Shown piece by piece: positions 274-37,603 of a stretch of DNA of 40,193 nt. Positions within the stretch are counted from its first letter, which is position 1. Each line of letters starts with the position of its first letter. The stretch is from a virus (Duplodnaviria > Heunggongvirae > Uroviricota > Caudoviricetes). Below the pieces are notes generated by a model. That model did no database searches. It was given only the letters and a program-made list of their open reading frames with translations, and was not told the origin of the DNA. Location of the stretch: IMG/VR virus record IMGVR_UViG_2671180415_000005. One strand, written 5' to 3'. Both the position numbers and the translations under genes were made by a program.

Positions 274-318
274 AAATCGGCGCTTTTCTTTTGAGTTTTA
301 GAATGAGTTTTTAAGCGT

Positions 319-1056
319 TCATTCACTCTCTTTCAAACCAGTTTTAACTGTTTGTGGTTTTGGGTAAGGCTGGACTTTGAATAGCTTTGTGTTAAGGCGT
401 TTTCTGGCTCTCTTGTCCAGAAACCGGATGTAACGAAACTGACGGAATTTATGAACACTGGCTCTGTCGATATTAGCCCGCAGATGTTCACCTCGCTGTC
501 CTCCTCGTTTGATTGCATTCTTGCAAATCTCGTGATACCACTCGCCATCAAGTTCATAGAATGTTGTTTCATGACTGCCTACATAATCAAAATTGCTTGC
601 CTGGTACACGACACCAAGACAGCCACAACGCTCATCTGCAAACGACTGAACCCACTGCACCTGCGGATAAAGTTGTCTGATTAGTTTGAGCGCGTAACTG
701 ATTGCCCTTGATTCGGAGTTTCTCGGCATACAGTCATGCAGCCATAACCGGTTAAGCTCCATATATTCGCGGTTCTGCGTGCCAGTTACGACGCGTGCAC
801 CATTGTTTGGATTAAGGGCATAACCCCATTGCATTACGCCAACCAGCTCCCGTTCTGAAAATATGCCCAGATGAAGGTAGGAATTATTTACGAAACGATG
901 GCTGTAATGTTTATTGACGACGACCAGCCGGGCCAGCCAGCAACTTATTGTCTCAACCCGTAACTCACGGGAGCCATAACCGACGATATTGTCGTTATAG
1001 TGAATAAGTTCAGGCGTGCTGATGATACGGGATGTAACTTGCTTTCTGTTCCCCAC
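319..1056 (-). CDS. mom: Mom-like DNA modification protein (start uncertain; candidate GTG at 1056, ORF is open up to 1251)
   Basis: Last gene before the prophage end, directly downstream of and overlapping a Com-like zinc-finger gene, as in Mu; AAGGAA 8 nt upstream of GTG; no direct sequence motif verified. Confidence 0.6.
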
Positions 1057-7182: not shown

Positions 7183-7742
7183 TAAATAGTCTCCTCTTCA
7201 TGGCTGTTTGCATAAACGTAAATAAACGTCTGCCATGCAGGCTTATAACGGTTCAGAATACATTCCAGCGCACCGCCTTCATAAATACGCAGCGGCGTGA
7301 GAATATCATCCAGCACATTCATATTCCGGTAGCCGGTTTCACTGTTAATCGTGACAATACTGACCCACTGCGAATCCGGTGAGGGCTGAATGTCAATCTG
7401 ATAACCAAACTCCGCCGCAAACCGGATATAAAATTCACGGTTCAGCGAGGGCTTCATCCGGTATTTATTTCCGGCATAACGCTGTCGCTCCGTGAGGGTG
7501 GCTCCGGCCATATCACACTCGGGAAGCCCGAGATAACGCTCCCAGTCTTCCAGCAGCAGGCGCGACGTGTCAGGGAAACGCTCGGCAAGCAGCTGTTTAC
7601 CCGTCCAGGATACACGCGCTGTCGAATGACTGAGGCCCAGACATAATGATGCCAGTACGGATGACGGACGCTTGTCCCATGCCAGCCCGTCAGGCAGTAA
7701 CTGCAACAGGGCGCGCTGATGCGGGGTCAGGGTTACAGCCAT
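7182..7742 (-). CDS. Tail/baseplate protein (Mu gp48 / YmfQ-like)
   Basis: 186 aa between baseplate J-like gene and tail fiber, Mu gp48 position; stop/start overlap with S. Confidence 0.6.
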
Positions 7743-8815
7743 GTGATTTCTCCTACCGTCAGCAGCTCACTGTCTCCCGCCTGAACTGACGTCAGCGGAC
7801 TGCGCACTTCAAAATCCTCCAGATTTTTCACCCCTGCCACCGCCCGCCAGAAAGACGACGGCAGAACCAGACCGCCGGGCCGGGATTCGTTATACAACAG
7901 GTCGGTCAGCGCCTGTTTTACGGCCGCCTGATTCTCCGGTGTTTTCGGGATGATCCTGATGCTGAAGGGCACCGGCTTATTGGTCAGTTTAAACACGGTC
8001 ACCGTCGGCCCCAGAGGCTGTCCGACAGGCTGGCCGGTCGCCGGATCATCATGACTGCGGATATAATCCGCCACCCGCTGAACATCACCGTCACCGGGGA
8101 AAATATCCGGGTTATTATCCTGAACAAACGTTACCCCCACGCTGCCCGCCTGCGGCCATTCCGGGCGGCACCATGCCCGCGTCACGCCCGGCACTTCACG
8201 CGCCCAGCGTTCAAAATCATACTGCGTGCCGCCGGACGGTGGATTCTGCACCCGGAAAACCAGACGGGAAAGCAGCTCCGGCACGGTTTCCACATCCGCA
8301 CCACCGGTGATCCCCGTTCCGGTCACCGTGGCCGTCTGGTTGATCCCCGCCTGCGGTGTGATAAATGTCAGTTTTGTCCCTGCCGGGGCATTCCCCGCAC
8401 GACCGGCACTTTCGGCTTCCACACTGACATTCAGCGTACCGGCCTTACCGGTCAGGGAGGTGGTGATACGGTAAACCACGCCATCACTTCGCTGGAGAAG
8501 CACACCTTCCTTGATCCCCGCATCCGTGGTCAGCATCAGCTGAACCGGCCCGTCCCCCCGAGAGGCAGGCTTACGCATGACGCCCCAGAATGCACAGTGT
8601 TTCAGCAGTTCGGCTTCATCGGCTTCGGTCGGGATGATCTGACGCGCAATCCAGGCCAGATGCTCATGCTCCTGAGCAGATAACCCTGCCTGAGCGTAAG
8701 CAATGGCATTCAGGGTGGTTTCATTCACACCCGGCTGCGAGCCGGGCAGGCGCTGGCTGATATCCTGCTGTGTCTGCGTGATTAACTGTGCCAGCGGTAA
8801 AGGCTGATAAGGCAT
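7733..8815 (-). CDS. Baseplate J-like protein (Mu gp47 / W-like)
   Basis: 360 aa, position and size as Mu gp47; translationally coupled neighbours. Confidence 0.7.
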   Translation of the reverse strand: MPYQPLPLAQLITQTQQDISQRLPGSQPGVNETTLNAIAYAQAGLSAQEHEHLAWIARQIIPTEADEAELLKHCAFWGVMRKPASRGDGPVQLMLTTDAGIKEGVLLQRSDGVVYRITTSLTGKAGTLNVSVEAESAGRAGNAPAGTKLTFITPQAGINQTATVTGTGITGGADVETVPELLSRLVFRVQNPPSGGTQYDFERWAREVPGVTRAWCRPEWPQAGSVGVTFVQDNNPDIFPGDGDVQRVADYIRSHDDPATGQPVGQPLGPTVTVFKLTNKPVPFSIRIIPKTPENQAAVKQALTDLLYNESRPGGLVLPSSFWRAVAGVKNLEDFEVRSPLTSVQAGDSELLTVGEITWL

Positions 8816-28256: not shown

Positions 28257-28757
28257 TCAGACTTTCGGCAAATCGTAACGACATAACCATTCATCCGCCG
28301 AACGGCGGGCCTCAAGACCGGGGAGTTTTACCCCCTTTGAATAAATCCAGCGGATATACTGCTTACAGGACGCGGGCATCTGCCCGGCATTGATAAGGCG
28401 CAGGAGCGTGGAGTTGCGAAAGTTCGTTTCACCGGCCCAGAAAATCCAGGAGGCCAGCGCCACCGTCTGACCACGGGTAAGCGGCACCTGAACATGACGA
28501 TCGATAGCCGCAAAGGCCCATTTCATGTCCTTTTCCAGCAGCTCCAGACACTCTTCATCAGTTTTTGTCATCCCCGGTTTCACATCCGGGCCGGTATGGC
28601 CGTAACAGATGGTGGGGGTGCCGGTGGGATCAATGTACGTGGTGTTTTCTTTCCCTTCCCAGTAGCCGGTGTAGTGCGTGGCAATGGTGAACGTCCCGGC
28701 TCCGGCCAGAACAAGGGCAATCAGCTTTTTACGCAGGGGTGCGGGGAGTTTTGGCAT
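28257..28757 (-). CDS. lys: Endolysin, lysozyme (GH24-like) with N-terminal signal-anchor-release (SAR) type hydrophobic segment
   Basis: N-terminal LIALVLAGAGTFTIATHY then YWEGKENTTYIDPTGTPTICYGHTG (E...D...T lysozyme catalytic motif). Confidence 0.8.
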   Translation of the reverse strand: MPKLPAPLRKKLIALVLAGAGTFTIATHYTGYWEGKENTTYIDPTGTPTICYGHTGPDVKPGMTKTDEECLELLEKDMKWAFAAIDRHVQVPLTRGQTVALASWIFWAGETNFRNSTLLRLINAGQMPASCKQYIRWIYSKGVKLPGLEARRSADEWLCRYDLPKV

Positions 28758-28828: not shown

Positions 28829-29251
28829 TCAGAAAAGCCGTGGCTGCGTGCGTTCCTGATGCAGGCGACGCTGGTTGCGGATAACGGAGTAAATCTGCGT
28901 CTCTGACATCTGGTAGTGGCGGCGCAGGGTTTCAATTTTTTCGCCCTGGCTCCAGCGGGAAAAAATTTCATTATTGCGCAGTTCGGTGAAAAGGGATTCA
29001 CCGACCGGGAGATAATAACCACGCCCGCCCATGTACCCGGCCTGTGCGGCTGCAACCTTACGGGCAAGCATTCCCGCCTGAGCAGGTTCAATCCCCTGAC
29101 GGTGCAGTTCAGCACTGATCACATCAACCAGGTCCCGCAGCGTGCCGGGCCAGTTCTTTTTCAGCTCATCATCAGGAATATCATCCAGACGGTCAATCAG
29201 CGCGTGCAGCTGTTCGCTGTCACCAAACATGCTCATCTGTGTTTCAGCCAT
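28829..29251 (-). CDS. Mor/C-family transcriptional activator (middle/late gene activator)
   Basis: 140 aa; C-terminal ...GGRGYYLPVGESLFTELRNNEIFSRW...MSETQIYSVIRNQRR matches Mor/C family pattern; sits immediately upstream of lys. Confidence 0.75.
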   Translation of the reverse strand: MAETQMSMFGDSEQLHALIDRLDDIPDDELKKNWPGTLRDLVDVISAELHRQGIEPAQAGMLARKVAAAQAGYMGGRGYYLPVGESLFTELRNNEIFSRWSQGEKIETLRRHYQMSETQIYSVIRNQRRLHQERTQPRLF

Positions 29252-29321
29252 ACCCGCCTCCGGTCATCATTACACAGGGCAAGTTTAAAATAAAAATCCC
29301 GCGCTGTGGCGGGATTTGGGG

Positions 29322-29834
29322 TTAACGGGGGAATGATTTTTCATACAGCCTGCAAACACGCTCATAACTCATCACTGCACGTTCCGACATATCCAGGGCT
29401 GCCAGCATTTTGCGGCGGTGCCAGCGTTTGAGACGCTCCAGCACATCAGAGGCCAGCGCGGGTTGTTGCTCCAGCCACTGCCAGTTAGCCACACCTTCGC
29501 CGTCGTTCTGCGCGGCCGTCTGCGATTTCACCCAGCGGTTAAGGGCCGTTTCCCCGCCATCAGAGATAAATCCCTGCCGGTGCATCACTTTCCAGATGGC
29601 GCGAATTTTGGCGGTCACCGTACCCGGTTTTAAGGCCCGGTTAACCGGCTTCTGACGCACTTTAAAACCGCGTTTTTTGAAAACATCCAGCACGCGGGAT
29701 AACTCACCGGGTGACATATCACGGCAACTGGATTTGCCGGTGGCTGCCAGCAGCGCGGATGTATAGGTATCATGGTCAAGCTGTAGATCGCGTTTTGCGA
29801 CATGTATTAAGGTAATCAGGGAAGCGCGATTCAT
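29322..29834 (-). CDS. GemA-like protein (Mu gp16 family)
   Basis: 170 aa; N-terminus MNRASLITLIHVAKRDLQLDHDTYTSALLAATGKSS resembles gp16/GemA family start; position just before Mor-like gene as in Mu. Confidence 0.55.
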   Translation of the reverse strand: MNRASLITLIHVAKRDLQLDHDTYTSALLAATGKSSCRDMSPGELSRVLDVFKKRGFKVRQKPVNRALKPGTVTAKIRAIWKVMHRQGFISDGGETALNRWVKSQTAAQNDGEGVANWQWLEQQPALASDVLERLKRWHRRKMLAALDMSERAVMSYERVCRLYEKSFPR

Positions 29835-29856
29835 TATCGTGGCTCCATAAAAAATG

Positions 29857-29876
29857 GGCGGTGTTACCGCACCGCC
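29857..29876 (-). terminator. Intrinsic terminator-like hairpin 20 nt upstream of gemA-like start (minus-strand sense)
   Basis: GGCGGTG-TTACCG-CACCGCC; on the minus-strand RNA the stem is followed by CAUUUUUUAUGG. Confidence 0.5.
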
Positions 29877-29904
29877 ATGTCAATTAACATAAAAGGAAAA
29901 ATCT

Positions 29905-30144
29905 ATGTCAGATATAAAAAATGCACTTGATGTTGCCGCATTCACAATGGCTGGAAATCTTATGGTAACCCTGTTCGATAAGGGGCTGATTTCCCGTGAG
30001 GAGGCAATACATATTATCAATCTCGCTCAAAAAAACTCTACCCCGGAAAATGCAGAAGATATCCAGGATGGCTCATATATTAATACCGACTGGCATTTCG
30101 ACAATCTCCGGGCCTGTATGGGGATTACCGCTGAAAAAGATTAA
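29905..30144 (+). CDS. Hypothetical small protein encoded antisense to the early operon (AT-rich)
   Basis: 79 aa with AAGGA Shine-Dalgarno 8 nt upstream of ATG; convergent with and overlapping by 20 bp the 3' end of the neighbouring minus-strand gene. Confidence 0.45.
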   Translation: MSDIKNALDVAAFTMAGNLMVTLFDKGLISREEAIHIINLAQKNSTPENAEDIQDGSYINTDWHFDNLRACMGITAEKD

Positions 30145-30412
30145 AAATTTTTGCATAATGTTCAGATGTAAGAATTGCTGAACCATCAACACCGAGCCTA
30201 CGGCGAACGTATTCCTCGCGGGCTATTTTATTATCCAGAGATACAGCATCCTTAATCAGGTTAATCTCCCGCTCCATTATCAAAAGGGCTTCTCTGGCTG
30301 CAAGATTTTCTTTTATCGCATATTCGATAATGTCCCGCATACGTTCAAGCATGCCGATTTTAGCCAGTTCTTCGTCGATAGATTTAGGCGCAAATTTGAT
30401 TTCTTTTTCCAT
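30125..30412 (-). CDS. Hypothetical helical protein (AT-rich early-region gene)
   Basis: 95 aa from MEKEIKF (internal Met of ORF 30125..30427), start 2 nt after the stop of the upstream zinc-ribbon ORF. Confidence 0.5.
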   Translation of the reverse strand: MEKEIKFAPKSIDEELAKIGMLERMRDIIEYAIKENLAAREALLIMEREINLIKDAVSLDNKIAREEYVRRRLGVDGSAILTSEHYAKIFNLFQR

Positions 30413-30413
30413 A

Positions 30414-30557
30414 TTATTCATCCTCACAATTTATACATGCAGTGTCGTCGCCCATATCGCAGTGGTTACATTTTATCTCACCACAATGTGGGCACTCTTT
30501 CAGATACTCCGGGTCCTCATTTCCACAGGTGGGACATTCAACAATTTGCTCATCCAT
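30414..30557 (-). CDS. Small zinc-ribbon protein (47 aa), not in supplied ORF track
   Basis: Hand translation MDEQIVECPTCGNEDPEYLKECPHCGEIKCNHCDMGDDTACINCEDE; CPxCG ... CPHCG ... C-x2-C motifs; tightly packed between flanking genes. Confidence 0.5.
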   Translation of the reverse strand: MDEQIVECPTCGNEDPEYLKECPHCGEIKCNHCDMGDDTACINCEDE

Positions 30558-30882
30558 TATGTATCCCCTGTAATTCCGGCAAGGCCGAAAGATGGCACCA
30601 GTGCGTCACCTGTCCGTCCTCATCTTCAAGGCAGGCTCCGGTTTCTTCATCAATAAAAAAGCCTTCATACCCCATATGGCCGATGCGCAGTTCCTGTTGG
30701 TCACCATACTGAACAATCAGCACGACAGCCTCCATATCAGGCGGAAATGCGTCATCCAGTGAATGCCAGGGATAACCGCGCAAATCCCCGAAATAAACGC
30801 CGGTCAGCGTTCCGCCACAGAGCGGCATTCCGGCGGCACACACAAGAGGTTCATCTGATTCAACAAATAAGGTCGTTATCAT
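30550..30882 (-). CDS. Hypothetical early protein
   Basis: 110 aa, coupled to neighbours. Confidence 0.45.
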   Translation of the reverse strand: MITTLFVESDEPLVCAAGMPLCGGTLTGVYFGDLRGYPWHSLDDAFPPDMEAVVLIVQYGDQQELRIGHMGYEGFFIDEETGACLEDEDGQVTHWCHLSALPELQGIHNG

Positions 30883-31433: not shown

Positions 31434-31949
31434 TCACCCCCTGACTCGCTTTTCAGCAGCATAAAACTCATCAGACAGTATTTCGGTCATTTTCTGTTTT
31501 GCGGGTTTTACGCCGCACTGAAGGTAAATCACATCGTCAACGCAGAACCACTTCACAGGGCCAAACAGGATTGCCGAGAAATCAATACCCAACCAGAACA
31601 ACAGCGCATCGGTTCTGGCATACGTGACGGGCGAATATTCACGCCACAGACTGTTCAGTTCATCAGAGGCAACACGCAGGGTTTTAGGGATACGTGATGT
31701 GCGCGGTGTGCAGCTCCAGCCATTCGACGCAGTCGGTTTTCGCCATAAGTCGCGATGAAAAGGATATTTGTCCTCCGTAAAACGCAGTCCCTTAAAGTAA
31801 AATCCACTGATACCGGATACAAATACCGACCGGCACGCAACATTCAGCACGGCCTCAAGGCGTTTTGCCTCATCCTTAACTTTCTGGCAGTCCTGCTGGT
31901 ATTTTTGCCACGCAGCCAGCGCGGAAGGGTTTGATGTTTTAAAGAACAT
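31434..31949 (-). CDS. Hypothetical early protein
   Basis: 171 aa ORF in operon context. Confidence 0.45.
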   Translation of the reverse strand: MFFKTSNPSALAAWQKYQQDCQKVKDEAKRLEAVLNVACRSVFVSGISGFYFKGLRFTEDKYPFHRDLWRKPTASNGWSCTPRTSRIPKTLRVASDELNSLWREYSPVTYARTDALLFWLGIDFSAILFGPVKWFCVDDVIYLQCGVKPAKQKMTEILSDEFYAAEKRVRG

Positions 31950-32482
31950 TACGCCACCTCCGCAGATATCCCGGCAGGCGCTGCTGTCCGGTCAACAATC
32001 AGGTAGCGCAGAACATGTTCAGTGATATTCCAGCCGCTTAAACCGCAGATAATGACGCCCAGGCGTATGTCGATATACGCCATCACAAACTGGGGCACGC
32101 CTTCTTTCATGGCCTGCTCATCAACTTCAGCCACCACATAAACGGTTTCACAGGTCAGAACGCCCTGAGCAAATTCCCACGCCATCGACGGAATATCATG
32201 CCCCTCAATCCATGGCAGGGATTTTCTGAAGCCGCACCACTGAACATCATCAGCCGCAGATTCCTGGCTGCATTTGCGACGAACCGGCTGCACCGGGCGG
32301 GGGCGCGGAATATCATAAAAACCGTTACATTCCGTCAGCACGCCTGCATCAACCGCATCACGCAAAAAATAAACCATGGAGGATGGCGGCATATTCATTT
32401 TTTCAGCCAGTACACCGCAGGTCAGGCGGCCATAAATACACAGCCAGTTTTTAACCCCTTCAAGCACTTTTGCATCAATCAT
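31949..32482 (-). CDS. Hypothetical early protein
   Basis: 177 aa ORF in operon context. Confidence 0.45.
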   Translation of the reverse strand: MIDAKVLEGVKNWLCIYGRLTCGVLAEKMNMPPSSMVYFLRDAVDAGVLTECNGFYDIPRPRPVQPVRRKCSQESAADDVQWCGFRKSLPWIEGHDIPSMAWEFAQGVLTCETVYVVAEVDEQAMKEGVPQFVMAYIDIRLGVIICGLSGWNITEHVLRYLIVDRTAAPAGISAEVA

Positions 32483-32627: not shown

Positions 32628-33158
32628 TTATTTATTCAGTCCGGCGTCCTGTTCAAAAGGCTCGACATAAAAACTTTCAGCGCCTTTATTCACCTTGATA
32701 CCGGCAATGCCTTTCACAGCATCCGGCTCCGCCAGGACGGCTTCCTTGTTCACTTCCTCTTTCGTGCGGATGAAACGCTCAAGCCCCATACGGCGCAGCA
32801 TTTCAATCACACCTTCCACATCACGGCTGACGCTGCATGATGGCGTTCCCAGCCGCCATGACACCGTTCCGGTGGTCAGATTGGCTGTTTTGGTTTTGCC
32901 GCCGTTCGTCAGCTCATCACGGTTGGTTTTGCACCAGTCCTGAATCCCTTTAAAAAGCACTTTGATTTGCTTTTTAAGATTTTCAATCTGCGGCGTATAA
33001 CGGGCGGTGATTTCTGCCACTTCGTCATTCATCGCCGTTTCCAGGCGCAGCGCCTCTCGCTGAATATCTCCCAGGGTGCGGATATCACGGCTGACTTCTT
33101 CCCGGGTCTGCGGTGCCGCCTCGGCTGCGGCCTTTAATTTTGTAACGCGTTTAGCCAT
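32628..33158 (-). CDS. gam: Gam-like host-nuclease inhibitor (Ku-like DNA end-binding protein)
   Basis: 176 aa; ...GDIQREALRLETAMNDEVAEITARY...WCKTNRDELTNGGKTKTANLTTGTVSWR...RFIRTKEEVNKEA matches Mu Gam pattern. Confidence 0.85.
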   Translation of the reverse strand: MAKRVTKLKAAAEAAPQTREEVSRDIRTLGDIQREALRLETAMNDEVAEITARYTPQIENLKKQIKVLFKGIQDWCKTNRDELTNGGKTKTANLTTGTVSWRLGTPSCSVSRDVEGVIEMLRRMGLERFIRTKEEVNKEAVLAEPDAVKGIAGIKVNKGAESFYVEPFEQDAGLNK

Positions 33159-34018: not shown

Positions 34019-34285
34019 TCACACCTCCCAGTAAACCGTGCAGCCGCTGATGCGGGTGGCCTTCACACGGCGGCGCAGGCCGTTGGTCTGTATGGTGATT
34101 TCAATTTCACCGGTTCCCTGCACGTTGCCTACCGGCGGCGTGGTTTTCAGTGCAAAACGTTGCGGATAGCGCTTACTGCGTTCCAGTACCGCACCGGCAA
34201 GTTCGGTCAGACGGCGCGCGCTGTTCAGGGAGTCGAATAAATTCATTTTGTTACCGCAGGATTGCATATTCATATAACACCTCAT
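34019..34285 (-). CDS. Hypothetical early protein downstream of B (start uncertain, adjacent to assembly gap)
   Basis: 88-aa ORF; several in-frame Met candidates. Confidence 0.35.
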   Translation of the reverse strand: MRCYMNMQSCGNKMNLFDSLNSARRLTELAGAVLERSKRYPQRFALKTTPPVGNVQGTGEIEITIQTNGLRRRVKATRISGCTVYWEV

Positions 34286-34381
34286 TTAGCTGACTTGTTT
34301 CGCACCAACAGAACGGCATATTCCGCTGTAAACTTCTGTCGCACCTTCGCGATCAAGTCCGGCAGATATCACCATTCGTGT

Positions 34382-34640
34382 NNNNNNNNNNNNNNNNNNN
34401 NNNNNNNNNNNNNNNNNNNNNNNNNNNNNNNNNNNNNNNNNNNNNNNNNNNNNNNNNNNNNNNNNNNNNNNNNNNNNNNNNNNNNNNNNNNNNNNNNNNN
34501 NNNNNNNNNNNNNNNNNNNNNNNNNNNNNNNNNNNNNNNNNNNNNNNNNNNNNNNNNNNNNNNNNNNNNNNNNNNNNNNNNNNNNNNNNNNNNNNNNNNN
34601 NNNNNNNNNNNNNNNNNNNNNNNNNNNNNNNNNNNNNNNN
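34382..34640. other. Assembly gap (259 N)
   Basis: Run of N in the sequence; interrupts the 3' end of the B-like gene. Confidence 1.
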
Positions 34641-35442
34641 CCGGCTTTTCAGCGATAGCCTGCATGACGGCCAGCTCGGCCTCACCACTGATCCCCCACG
34701 CCATGGCAATGGCCAGCACATCCGCCTTTTTGGCCTTGCGAAGTTGTTTTGTACGGGCAAGACGGCTGAACAGGCGCGATAAATCATCAAAGGCGCGGCG
34801 TCCACCTTTAAACAATCCGCGCGGGTTACCAATAAGCACCATCCCGATCCCCGTGGCGTCCTGAATTGCCCGGAGTTGCTCCAGACCGTCAATACCAAGA
34901 TGATCCGCCTCATCCACAATCACCAGTCCACGCGTTCCCATCAGGCGACGGCGGATGGCGCGGGATAATGCCCCTTTGTTCGCGCGGGTGTAATCAATCC
35001 CCAGCGCATCGGCCAGCTCCAGCAGACACTCCGTGACGCTGGAGTGCGCGGGTGACAGGGTGATCATCCAGGTGTTTGGTTGCTCCTGGCAGTAATTACG
35101 GGCAGTGGCCGTTTTACCCACACCCGGTACGCCCACAATAACGTTAATACAGCCCATCAGGCGAACCGCCTGAAACAGTGCGCGCAGCTCCTGGACTGTC
35201 TGAGTTTCCACAAACTGCGGCGGTTCCGGCAGTGCGCTTTGTTTATTCCAGTTCTCATACCAGGAGCGCAGGGAAGCAGCCACAGCAGCGTTATCGCCTT
35301 TATATTTTCCCTTACGGAAAGCCGATAATGTGCCGTCGGAAATTCCCGCCTCTCTGGCGATGGCATACTGCGTCAGTACGCCGCCATCAATAAGTTCATC
35401 AATGGTCTTGATTACATCGTTAATATCGGTCATATTATTCAC
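34641..35442 (-). CDS. B: Mu B-like transposition ATPase (AAA+), C-terminal ~45 codons lost in gap
   Basis: N-terminal HTH then Walker A GVPGVGKT, ...LVIVDEADHLG (Walker B), ...KKADVLAIAMAWGISGEAEL; pattern matches Mu B throughout. Confidence 0.85.
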
Positions 35443-35515: not shown

Positions 35516-37603
35516 TCAGGCCAGCGGATCACTTTCTTTTAATTTCGCTTCGAGCAGTTGCAATCCCCGCTGGAAATTACGCTCGTATTCTTCATCAGGT
35601 TCATCGTCAGCGACCGGTTGCTGAACGGTCACCGTATTACCCACAGGGCGGTATATGTTTTCCAGCCAGGGCTCCTGCGGCTTGTGCTCCAGCACGTTGA
35701 CAACCTCATCCTCGGCATCACGGATTTTTTCCTCTGCGCGTTTACGCATGCCTTTAAGGCGCTGCTGCTGTTTGTAGTATTCCGCGCTGACAGGGAAGGC
35801 TTCGCGTTTATTGCCGTCCCATACCGCCTCGCAAATCACGCTGCCATCCGGGCGGCGCACGGTAATTCGTTCGGCATCATGAATGTCATAGCTGATAAGT
35901 ACCTTACGGCCATGCTCGTCACGCAGCTCGGGCGCGTAGTAAATATTATTCAGCCAGCGTATTTCACAGCGTCTTACAGGGCGCTCCACCATCGGCCGGA
36001 ACATATCCCGCAGTTCAACATCGGACAGCCATTCAATTTCCGTGTCCTCTTCCGCCAGGCGTTTTTTTCTGAACTCCGCCGGGCTGTAATGTTTACCGTT
36101 CGGCTTCATGGGTAATTCATCGTGCGGCCGGTTGTTGTACCACTCAACACCGTCACGAATGGCATCAATCAGTTCAGACCAGGACGGTAAATCACGCATC
36201 GCTGACTGCTGCCGGGCGTTCAGCCGTTTGCCCTGTTGCAGGGCACTGAATGCCGAGCGTAAATCGCGGTTGGTTTTACGTAACGTCTCGCGATCTGCTC
36301 CTTTCCCGAAATAGGTGCGGTATTTACGGGCTATGCGCATCGGTAATGTGCGGTTAAGCCGTTCGATAATGCCCCGTCCCTGCGGATTACCGGCAATCCC
36401 TGTCGGGTGATTAATCCCCAGTCGTGGCAGTATCCCCACAATCTCCTTATCCAGGACGTCGGCGGTTTCCCCGGAGCCATTATCCGAGTAATACAGAAAC
36501 GGTTTGCCATGATGGCGAATACCGTGCTGTATGGCACCGGCTACGGCGAAAACATTTTCAGCCAGGTCAAGGCTCCAGCCCACCACAAAGCGCGTGCCAC
36601 CGTCGATAACAAAGGTCACTTCCGGTGCGAATGGCCGCCCGTGAACCGGGTGCGCGCATTTCAGCTTCATGCCGTGACCGTCACCAATCCAGACATAATT
36701 CACCGGCATTCTGGACCAGTCGCGGCGCGTGAATCCCTCAAGCTGACGGTATTCACTGCCAGTTACCCGGCCTTTTTGTTTCACCACTTCCGGCAGTTTC
36801 TTCATTGCGCGGCGAATGGTGTCATAAGAGGGCATGATATCGAGCATATAAGGCTCATCAGCGTGCCGGTGCTGCCATTCAGCAACAAAATCCTCGTAAG
36901 CCTCGGTCATTGGTCGGCCGTTTGACTGGCGATACTGCGCCAGAAATTCGGGCAGCCAGTTAATATCTTCGGCTTTTATTTCCTGGCGTTTACCCGGTGC
37001 CAGTAAAAGCAGGCGTTCAGCGGCGTTCTGTGCCTTGTTAAAGGCCGCAATCCAGCGTTTCAGCGTGATTTCACTCAACGCGCGGCTGTTTCCCTTTTTG
37101 GCGTTCGCCGTCTCAACCATTGCCACAATGCGCTCGTCCAGTTGTGATCGTGCCAGGCTGTTAACGAGGAACCGGATAGCTTTAGCGCAGCTGAAACCGG
37201 GTTGTTGCGTGAATTTCAGCACCTCACTGACGATCGCAATGCGTGCGTCTGCCACCTGGCGCTGGTTTTCAGTCAGGGCATTGAGGCGTTCGACCATCAG
37301 TTGTGGTGATCCGCGATATGCCTCCACCGCATCAACCACGGCAGACGAGCGTCTGGCCTTTGTCACCACCGGAGCCGGTGATTCATCGGCTTTTTGCGTC
37401 ATCAGTTGCAGGGCATAACGTTCGCGTAATGCCTGCTGTGTCACTTCAGGTAAACAGTCAATGCTGTATTCAAAACCTTTAGCGCCTTTCTTGCGGCGTC
37501 TGCTGGTTTCGCTGGTTGCATACTTCCTGATTGAATAGCGAACGCCTTGCTCCGTTCCCGGCATCCCCGGTAATCCAACCAGTTCTTTAACTGAAGCAAA
37601 CAT
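35516..37603 (-). CDS. A: Mu A-like DDE transposase
   Basis: 695 aa directly after ner-like gene; size and position of MuA; large central catalytic region. Confidence 0.9.
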   Translation of the reverse strand: MFASVKELVGLPGMPGTEQGVRYSIRKYATSETSRRRKKGAKGFEYSIDCLPEVTQQALRERYALQLMTQKADESPAPVVTKARRSSAVVDAVEAYRGSPQLMVERLNALTENQRQVADARIAIVSEVLKFTQQPGFSCAKAIRFLVNSLARSQLDERIVAMVETANAKKGNSRALSEITLKRWIAAFNKAQNAAERLLLLAPGKRQEIKAEDINWLPEFLAQYRQSNGRPMTEAYEDFVAEWQHRHADEPYMLDIMPSYDTIRRAMKKLPEVVKQKGRVTGSEYRQLEGFTRRDWSRMPVNYVWIGDGHGMKLKCAHPVHGRPFAPEVTFVIDGGTRFVVGWSLDLAENVFAVAGAIQHGIRHHGKPFLYYSDNGSGETADVLDKEIVGILPRLGINHPTGIAGNPQGRGIIERLNRTLPMRIARKYRTYFGKGADRETLRKTNRDLRSAFSALQQGKRLNARQQSAMRDLPSWSELIDAIRDGVEWYNNRPHDELPMKPNGKHYSPAEFRKKRLAEEDTEIEWLSDVELRDMFRPMVERPVRRCEIRWLNNIYYAPELRDEHGRKVLISYDIHDAERITVRRPDGSVICEAVWDGNKREAFPVSAEYYKQQQRLKGMRKRAEEKIRDAEDEVVNVLEHKPQEPWLENIYRPVGNTVTVQQPVADDEPDEEYERNFQRGLQLLEAKLKESDPLA

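Follow-up and report, generated by a model that had tools for sequence, protein, structure and literature searches.

Bacteriophage Mu is a model phage, and three of its genes, gp13, gp14 and gp15, are without assigned function; public records even disagree on whether gp15 exists. In the RefSeq genome (NC_000929.1), gp13 and gp14 lie at 7471..7957, directly upstream of gemA, and gp15, of 88 amino acids (aa), is placed on the opposite strand at 7896..8162, overlapping the 3′ end of gp14 and lying 70 bp from gemA. Mor-family proteins switch on middle/late transcription in Mu, and t9.2 is the terminator at the end of the Mu early operon. Here we analyzed a 40,193-nucleotide stretch of viral DNA (IMG/VR record IMGVR_UViG_2671180415_000005), hereafter the window, which holds a complete Escherichia coli Mu-like prophage whose lytic genes are encoded on the minus strand, and within it a patch directly before gemA (29841..30557) that holds one plus-strand gene, two minus-strand genes and a hairpin. 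An initial annotation had taken this patch for a horizontally acquired accessory module. Sequence comparison indicates that it is very probably the prophage’s own allele of the Mu gp13-gp14-gp15 block, in the distal early ‘semi-essential’ operon.

Comparison of the patch with Mu

The patch and its immediate flanks contain the following features.

29322..29834, minus strand: gemA (gp16 family), the conserved downstream flank; Pfam GemA match at 1.8e-28; ‘gp16 family protein’ according to the Prokaryotic Genome Annotation Pipeline (PGAP)
29835..29904: 70-bp divergent spacer between gemA and open reading frame (ORF) ORF79, with no variable site in 6 cassette-bearing loci
29849..29876, minus strand: terminator-like element with a 7-bp stem (6 G-C), a 6-nt loop and then CA + T6, from a terminator scan with which the fold agrees
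29905..30144, plus strand: ORF79, 79 aa, ATG start, AAGGA 8 nt upstream; annotated by PGAP in identical RefSeq loci
30125..30412, minus strand: ORF95, 95 aa, counterpart of gp14 (old name E15)
30414..30557, minus strand: ORF47, 47 aa, 8 Cys in four CxxC pairs, counterpart of gp13 (old name E14)
30550..30882, minus strand: conserved 110-aa gene that bounds the slot described below on its upstream side, where homology with other prophages resumes; PHROG 6925 match at 2e-51

The corresponding interval of Mu (NC_000929.1, 7471..8232) has the gene order, orientations, gp14/gp15 3′ overlap and ~70-bp divergent spacer of the window, and its stem before the gemA Shine-Dalgarno sequence (GGCGGTG/CACCGCC) is identical. 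The two differ in the hairpin loop (TTGCAG in Mu, CGGTAA in the window), in the tract that follows it (CCCTTTCC in Mu, T6 in the window) and further upstream, where Mu carries gp12, which the window lacks, having a Myb/SANT-like gene and the 110-aa gene instead. The gp13-gp15 block of Mu is also below its flanks in guanine-plus-cytosine (GC) content, at 46.5%.

ORF95 is an ortholog of Mu gp14, with which it shares 49% identity over 94 aa (E 5e-21); identity to gp14 of phage D108 is 56% (tblastn). It matches PHROG 6075 at 5e-44, a family without assigned function, and a gp14 hidden Markov model (HMM) matches the gene converging on every gp15-family gene examined. The AlphaFold2 (AF2) model of ORF95, with a predicted local distance difference test score (pLDDT) of 88, is all-helical, with four helices and a long helical hairpin.

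ORF47 is a predicted double zinc ribbon and an ortholog of Mu gp13, which lies directly upstream of gp14 on the early strand as ORF47 does of ORF95. The initial annotation had pointed to this Cys-rich ORF as missing from the ORF track, and the gene is indeed present, with its four CxxC pairs and a Shine-Dalgarno sequence (GGGGA) 6-7 nt upstream of the start. The start overlaps the stop of the 110-aa gene (ATGGATGA), and the stop lies 1 nt before the ATG of ORF95; such packing is what a real gene, translationally coupled to the 110-aa gene upstream, typically shows. A tblastn search of phage genomes gave 88% identity to Mu gp13 over residues 7-47, the zinc-ribbon part. ORF47 also matches PHROG 5584 at 3e-26, again a family without assigned function, and the gp13 HMM with all 8 Cys aligned; Pfam zinc-ribbon matches were all below threshold (best E 0.005). 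It lacks the 13 N-terminal residues of Mu gp13, a shortening that we attribute to the recombination joint at its 5′ end. Across 6 loci, variable sites by codon position number 2/1/6, and the protein is strongly acidic (isoelectric point 4.05; 14 acidic versus 2 basic residues), with no predicted membrane helix.

PGAP leaves the gp13-like gene unannotated in every RefSeq E. coli locus that we fetched (L001, 4114..4250, with equivalents in L005-L008 and L010), unlike gp13 of Mu itself, which is annotated. At locus L026 (3510..4205), a 231-aa protein ends in the gp13 zinc ribbon (PHROG 6418 type) and may be a gp12-gp13 fusion; in the near-identical L025, gp12 and gp13 are two genes.

The antisense gene and the gp15 family

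ORF79 runs on the strand opposite to the early operon, converging on ORF95 and diverging from gemA. The initial annotation had described a plus-strand ORF with its own Shine-Dalgarno sequence that overlaps a minus-strand gene by 20 bp within an otherwise uniformly minus-strand early region, and this description holds: the overlap spans 30125..30144 (20 bp), and all other annotated early genes are on the minus strand. Identical DNA is present in several complete E. coli chromosomes, in which PGAP places all genes of the region on one strand except the 79-aa ORF.

Relatives of ORF79 are few: a search of 1.8 billion proteins gave only 9 clusters at 50% identity, and its PHROG match (32893, at 1e-45) is to a family without assigned function. 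An HMM of the gp15 family, built from these relatives and run on 4,220 to about 8,500 six-frame ORFs, gave E-values of 7.6e-10 for the antisense ORF of D108/Mu_3F6 and of 7e-5 to 4e-4 for the pair Mu gp15 and SfMu_16 (1e-4 to 4e-4 for Mu gp15); the next ORF had E > 1. SfMu_16 is the annotated gp15 counterpart of phage SfMu, and the D108/Mu_3F6 gene is annotated in Mu_3F6, at 119 aa, and falls in an annotation gap in D108. Relative to Mu gp15, which it resembles distantly and in the N-terminal half, ORF79 is closer to a subfamily with the motif WHLDNL. A viral fold search with the ORF79 model ranked the Mu ORF Q38493 4th, with a template modeling (TM) score of 0.59 but an E-value of 1.8. ORF79 is thus a putative gp15-family member by profile and synteny, and a distant one with respect to Mu gp15 itself, to which its link is weak.

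Several observations bear on whether ORF79 is translated at all. Family members at 31-49% identity share length, locus and the motifs DxAAFTxAGN, KG..S..EA and WHLDNL. ORF79 is open in 4 alleles, with variable sites of 8/5/14 by codon position, and the longest ORF on the early strand opposite to it is at most 46 aa. Its AF2 model, from a shallow alignment, comprises 4 helices at pLDDT 80. A plus strand yielding at most an antisense RNA, with a frame open by chance, would be compatible with a protein so small, with few family members and no known domain, and with the current GenBank record of Mu, which replaced gp15 by the forward gene Mu_54; however, Mu_54 has no counterpart in the window or in D108, and the shared length, motifs and locus, the Shine-Dalgarno sequence, the ATG and the confident AF2 model render this explanation hardly credible.

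The two Mu records conflict directly: RefSeq (NC_000929.1; L029, 497..763) has the antisense gp15, and GenBank (AF083977.1; L011, 2097..2363) has the forward 55-aa Mu_54 and no gp15. The conservation and synteny of the putative gp15 family favor the RefSeq reading. We found no discussion of Mu gp15 in the literature searched, and a term search of the SfMu paper returned no mention of SfMu_16.

Variation among ORF79 alleles is concentrated in a short linker at 30035..30062 (KNSTPENAEDIQ versus KSAAPQSAEGHQ), which looks like a small recombination patch inside the gene. The protein is acidic, and its highest 19-residue hydropathy, 1.27, is below the threshold for a membrane helix; none is predicted, and a membrane protein was ruled out. 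The Yersinia phage vB_YpM_3 (L015, 1195..1255) has lost gp15 through a clean deletion between short CTGAT repeats and retains the hairpin and the gemA ribosome-binding site. Since vB_YpM_3 was isolated as a plaque former, gp15 appears dispensable for lytic growth.

Recurrence of the layout in other prophages

The arrangement of gp14 and gp15 converging on each other, followed by a GC hairpin with a T tract and then the Shine-Dalgarno sequence of gemA, recurs in Mu, SfMu and D108/Mu_3F6. Seven divergent relatives of ORF79 (37-49% identity) are likewise encoded opposite to their neighbors and converge on a gene of 89-121 aa that belongs to the gp14 family by profile, with a 3′ overlap of 4-98 bp. 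The gp15-like gene mostly lies 64-74 bp from the gemA start in relatives. Exceptions are L027 and L028, in which a non-gemA gene adjoins the gp15-like gene; it is a DUF2786 gene followed by gemA in one, and a neighbor without an assignment in the other. Genes of the gp15 family were never seen without gp14, and gp14 occurs without gp15 in vB_YpM_3. The gp13 profile had no match in several distant prophages that have gp14, gp15 and the hairpin. Because they occupy the same place in Mu, SfMu, D108 and distant prophages, the antisense gene and the hairpin appear to represent ancestral Mu-type architecture.

Outside Escherichia, the gp14/gp15 pair with a hairpin before gemA was observed on a plasmid of Klebsiella sp. 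WOUb02 (L064, 609..1200) and in a prophage of Photobacterium frigidiphilum (L087, 587..1195). Across 80 GemA loci from Proteobacteria, gemA is mostly coupled to a co-directional gene, and the set is too noisy to read a co-occurrence of hairpin and antisense gene beyond the enterobacterial and Vibrio group.

A terminator-like hairpin in the divergent spacer

On the minus strand (29876..29857) the hairpin reads GGCGGTG-CGGTAA-CACCGCC followed by CATTTTTTAT, 22 nt before the gemA ATG at 29834, and the terminator-like element ends 8 nt before the gemA Shine-Dalgarno sequence (GGAG). The stem-loop and U6 run that the initial annotation had placed just before gemA (29857..29876) are therefore present. 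The region contains 4 terminator-like sites against 2.4 ± 1.7 in shuffles, so that a single site is not above chance; the significance of the hairpin comes from its conservation in relatives and not from its single-site score.

A stem-loop was found in the gemA-sense spacers of Mu, SfMu, D108, the window, a DUF2513-type prophage and L017, L020, L023, L024, L025 and L028, ending in relatives 8-12 nt before the gemA Shine-Dalgarno sequence and followed by a T- or pyrimidine-rich tract. Across 12 homologous intergenic regions, 84 of 84 pair cells are standard, 2 of the 7 pairs are compensatory and 4 cells are G.U. These G.U cells are C.A mismatches on the opposite strand, and shifting the pairing register abolishes pairing. 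The Photobacterium hairpin has a different stem, a GAAA loop and a T8 tract. Hairpin and antisense gene were scored in 31 close relatives from IMG/VR (of 32 loci returned): 7 have a gp15-like gene and the hairpin, 7 have a DUF2513-like gene or its remnant and a hairpin with a different stem, and 17 have neither. All 14 relatives that carry an antisense gene or its remnant thus have a hairpin, and none of the other 17 does; in these, the gemA start overlaps a co-directional upstream gene. Searches of 29200..30700 against Rfam returned no family, and a repeat search found nothing besides the hairpin. The element is best read as a predicted hairpin in the early-strand RNA, built like an intrinsic terminator.

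Its GC-rich stem, short loop and U tract are shared with the intrinsic terminators and attenuators that mark operon boundaries in temperate phages, and like them it lies between units of a temporal cascade. It differs from them in its position inside an early operon commonly depicted as a single unit, immediately before the gemA ribosome-binding site.

The inverted repeat, with 7-bp half-sites 6 bp apart, might alternatively be a DNA operator through which a dimeric regulator, perhaps of the gp15 family or the DUF2513 product, would control divergent promoters of gemA and gp15. Its divergent intergenic position and its geometry are operator-like, its stem and loop are nearly identical in otherwise diverged spacers, and the palindrome differs between gp15-type and DUF2513-type cassettes. 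However, the G.U positions leave the DNA repeat imperfect in L002/L032, L025 and L028, and one palindrome accompanies Mu gp15, the D108 119-aa protein and ORF79, with no co-variation with the protein. An operator would also leave the T tract unexplained, ORF79 has no detectable DNA-binding fold, and the hairpin persists without gp15 in vB_YpM_3. We consider an operator very unlikely, and retain the reading as an RNA hairpin.

A low-GC exchange slot and its alternative cassettes

The patch had been described as more AT-rich than its flanks, and this was borne out: 29841..30557 has 41.8% GC, compared with 53.4% for the whole window, and ranks among the lowest 1.3% of 717-bp segments of the early region. 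An apparent dip to 13-20% GC at ~34250-34700 was dismissed as an artefact of a masked N run (34382..34640) inside the MuB-like gene. Alignments with other E. coli Mu-like prophages are interrupted from 29807 or 29853 to 30544 or 30567, almost exactly the interval marked in the initial annotation. Between these breakpoints, relatives carry at least four alternative cassettes, composed of a DUF2513 antisense gene with two forward genes, four forward genes, two forward genes or one forward gene, all with 42-43% GC between flanks of 48-57%. The window’s cassette occurs in 14 of 5426 complete E. coli genomes, compared with 232 that have the gemA flank. The site upstream of gemA is thus an exchange slot of low GC content, in which the window carries the ancestral Mu-type set.

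The DUF2513-like gene encodes 136 aa (L002, 1600..2010, plus strand; also L030, L033-L036 and L059) and takes the same antisense position; its Pfam match (E 6.6e-5) is below the cut-off. Loci of this type have a GC hairpin of their own before gemA (GGGCGGC.../...GCCGCC), and L032 keeps the hairpin with a gene remnant. The DUF2513 cassette (e.g., NZ_CP147059.1, with a 102-aa gene) thus shares with the window’s cassette the slot, the flanks, the convergent antisense gene, the GC hairpin and a GC content of ~42%, but its proteins are unrelated (the gp13, gp14 and gp15 HMMs gave no match) and its stem sequence is different.

These properties bear on the possibility that the patch is a horizontally acquired accessory module, or moron, with an anti-defense, toxin-antitoxin or regulatory antisense function. 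The slot is mosaic, with sharp breakpoints and alternative cassettes that are all AT-rich, and of the roughly 232 E. coli genomes that carry related prophages, just 14 have this cassette. ORF79 resembles a moron in that it runs opposite to the operon around it, is AT-rich, is unneeded for lytic growth and is variably present among relatives. It is oriented as a lysogeny-expressed gene, and gp15 is dispensable; ORF47, in addition, is very acidic. Morons nevertheless have their own promoter and terminator, whereas no plus-strand terminator follows ORF79 after 30144 and promoter-like matches are weak and unconserved. Morons are also sporadic, whereas an ORF79-type gene holds this position across the Mu lineage and the adjacent terminator acts on the other strand. 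Mu, SfMu and D108 share the order and orientation of the three genes, and gp14, gp15 and the hairpin recur in distant prophages.

Function searches yielded no toxin, antitoxin or defense match. Pfam gave no significant match for ORF79, ORF95 or ORF47 and NCBIfam none near a curated cut-off; PADLOC matched 0 families at E up to 1; sequence searches of the PDB returned nothing significant for the three proteins. Foldseek searches of the PDB found no significant match for the ORF79 or ORF95 models, nor did BFVD for ORF79. The homologs retrieved were all E. coli prophage proteins that carry neither a name nor a domain. A type II toxin-antitoxin system was rejected, as the genes are convergent and not co-directional and carry no toxin or antitoxin domain in Pfam, NCBIfam or PADLOC; a type I system was rejected as well, given the absence of a predicted membrane helix in ORF79 (hydropathy 1.27) and a gp14/gp15 overlap that varies from 4 to 98 bp and is not conserved.

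We therefore regard a moron as distinctly unlikely, and favor the Mu-type block. As to the initial annotation, the part that stands is a mosaic slot of low GC content with sharp breakpoints, and what fails is the foreign origin of its contents, since the cassette is the set found in Mu, SfMu and D108. The anti-defense proposal finds no support in PADLOC, Pfam (at significance), NCBIfam, PDB or fold matches, the toxin-antitoxin proposal has no domain match and is contradicted by the convergent orientation, and nothing in the searches supports a regulatory antisense pair. Homology and structure prediction, which it had suggested as a check, led to families without known function and to no fold match. 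The comparison among related prophages, also suggested there, found no cassette of typical GC content, all being low, and showed that the layout recurs, yet about half of the relatives are without the antisense gene.

Prophage setting and the second terminator

Beyond the patch, the following features of the prophage are relevant.

28257..28757, minus strand: lysozyme gene, adjoining the Mor-family gene
28829..29251, minus strand: Mor-family gene, between gemA and the lysozyme gene
29294..29317, minus strand: second, stronger intrinsic terminator, between the gemA stop codon and the Mor-family gene; free energy -13.5 kcal/mol, z = -4.1
31949..32482, minus strand: gp11-like gene, followed toward lower coordinates by a 171-aa gene and then the Myb/SANT-like 183-aa gene
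32628..33158, minus strand: Gam
35516..37603, minus strand: MuA-like gene, with the adjacent MuB-like gene next in order

The patch had been assigned to the early/middle operon boundary. It lies instead ahead of gemA, close to where the early operon ends, and the boundary probably falls after gemA, at the stronger terminator (29317..29294). In E. coli STEC1587 (L003), an insert of 694 bp and 39% GC with two opposite-strand genes lies between two copies of this terminator (274..300 and 995..1020), after gemA, and looks like a second cargo slot. In the segment 28257..29251, a single Mor/C-family gene takes the place of the mor, gp18-20 and C genes of Mu, so the regulatory cascade of this prophage may be shorter than that of Mu.

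A possible role for the hairpin

Within the Mu-type block, ORF47 and ORF95 would be read within the early minus-strand transcript, and ORF79 would be a real coding gene, read in the direction of the repressor gene and expressed independently of the early promoter. In early-strand RNA, the hairpin would partly stop transcripts once the antisense gene has been passed, 8 nt short of the ribosome-binding site of gemA. It and the strong terminator that follows gemA would restrict how much transcription from the early promoter continues into gemA and the single Mor-family activator gene, insulating the middle/late switch from leaky early transcription, and gemA would be expressed through leaky read-through, from a promoter in the 70-bp divergent spacer, or both. 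That the hairpin and its U tract act as such a leaky intrinsic terminator or attenuator is plausible, and we put it forward tentatively. The identity of the block and this mechanism, taken together, probably give the best overall explanation of the locus.

Several points weigh against this explanation. The profile match between ORF79 and Mu gp15 is weak (about 19-20 bits; about 19-21 bits with SfMu_16 included) and confined to the N-terminal half, pairwise BLASTP between the two gave nothing significant, and the link is made by profile and synteny. The tract after the hairpin in Mu (CCCTTTCC) is weak, so the hairpin cannot be a strong terminator everywhere. Conversely, a strong terminator 8 nt before the gemA Shine-Dalgarno sequence demands a separate route to gemA expression, and scans for a convincing sigma-70 promoter found none on either strand, returning only weak and inconsistently placed matches. 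Early Mu transcripts reach mor. Finally, the near-identity of stem and loop in diverged spacers could equally mark a sequence-specific protein site.

In a different role, the hairpin would be a 5′-terminal stabilizing stem-loop of a gemA transcript initiated in the spacer or, in a variant, the start site would lie inside the 5′ arm, so that this transcript escapes a terminator that halts only those arriving from upstream. The GenBank record of Mu annotates a ‘semi-early promoter’ at 8151..8217, spanning the equivalent spacer and the hairpin. Weak matches resembling -35 and -10 elements occur repeatedly, the -10 lying at -46..-61 relative to the gemA ATG, and for the window, L017, L020, L025 and D108 the implied start would coincide with the hairpin or immediately precede it; the hairpin is also retained where gp15 is deleted. 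Yet the promoter-like scores are weak (4.8-9.5), their spacing is variable, AT-rich sequence gives chance matches, and the constant T tract (T6, T8) would be unneeded. We judge a 5′ stabilizer rather unlikely, and keep the leaky terminator as the working proposal.

More speculatively, the convergent gp14/gp15 pair and the hairpin might form a checkpoint, in which transcription of gp15 in the lysogen, or pairing between its RNA and the early transcript, tunes read-through into gemA and the Mor activator; or gp15 might be a lysogeny-expressed effector (exclusion or host modulation) in a general cargo site. We regard either as a long shot.

Significance

The finding as reported is largely ordinary: the patch is, on the comparisons made here, a standard and little-studied Mu-type part, diverged but canonical, and not a new foreign insert. 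It nevertheless defines gp15 as a putative conserved family that always converges on gp14, with a conserved terminator-like hairpin before gemA, which supports the RefSeq annotation of Mu, and it brings to light the recurrent omission of the gp13-like zinc-ribbon gene by PGAP. A testable element is thereby defined at the border of the early and gem/mor units. If gp15 genes were effectors at a cargo site, the presence of DUF2513 in the same place would be accounted for. Should the hairpin control read-through into the Mor-family activator gene, it would bear on the timing of the lytic cascade in Mu-type phages; and if gp14, gp15 and the hairpin together form a checkpoint, they would control the passage from early to middle expression and shield the lysogenic state against leaky early transcription.

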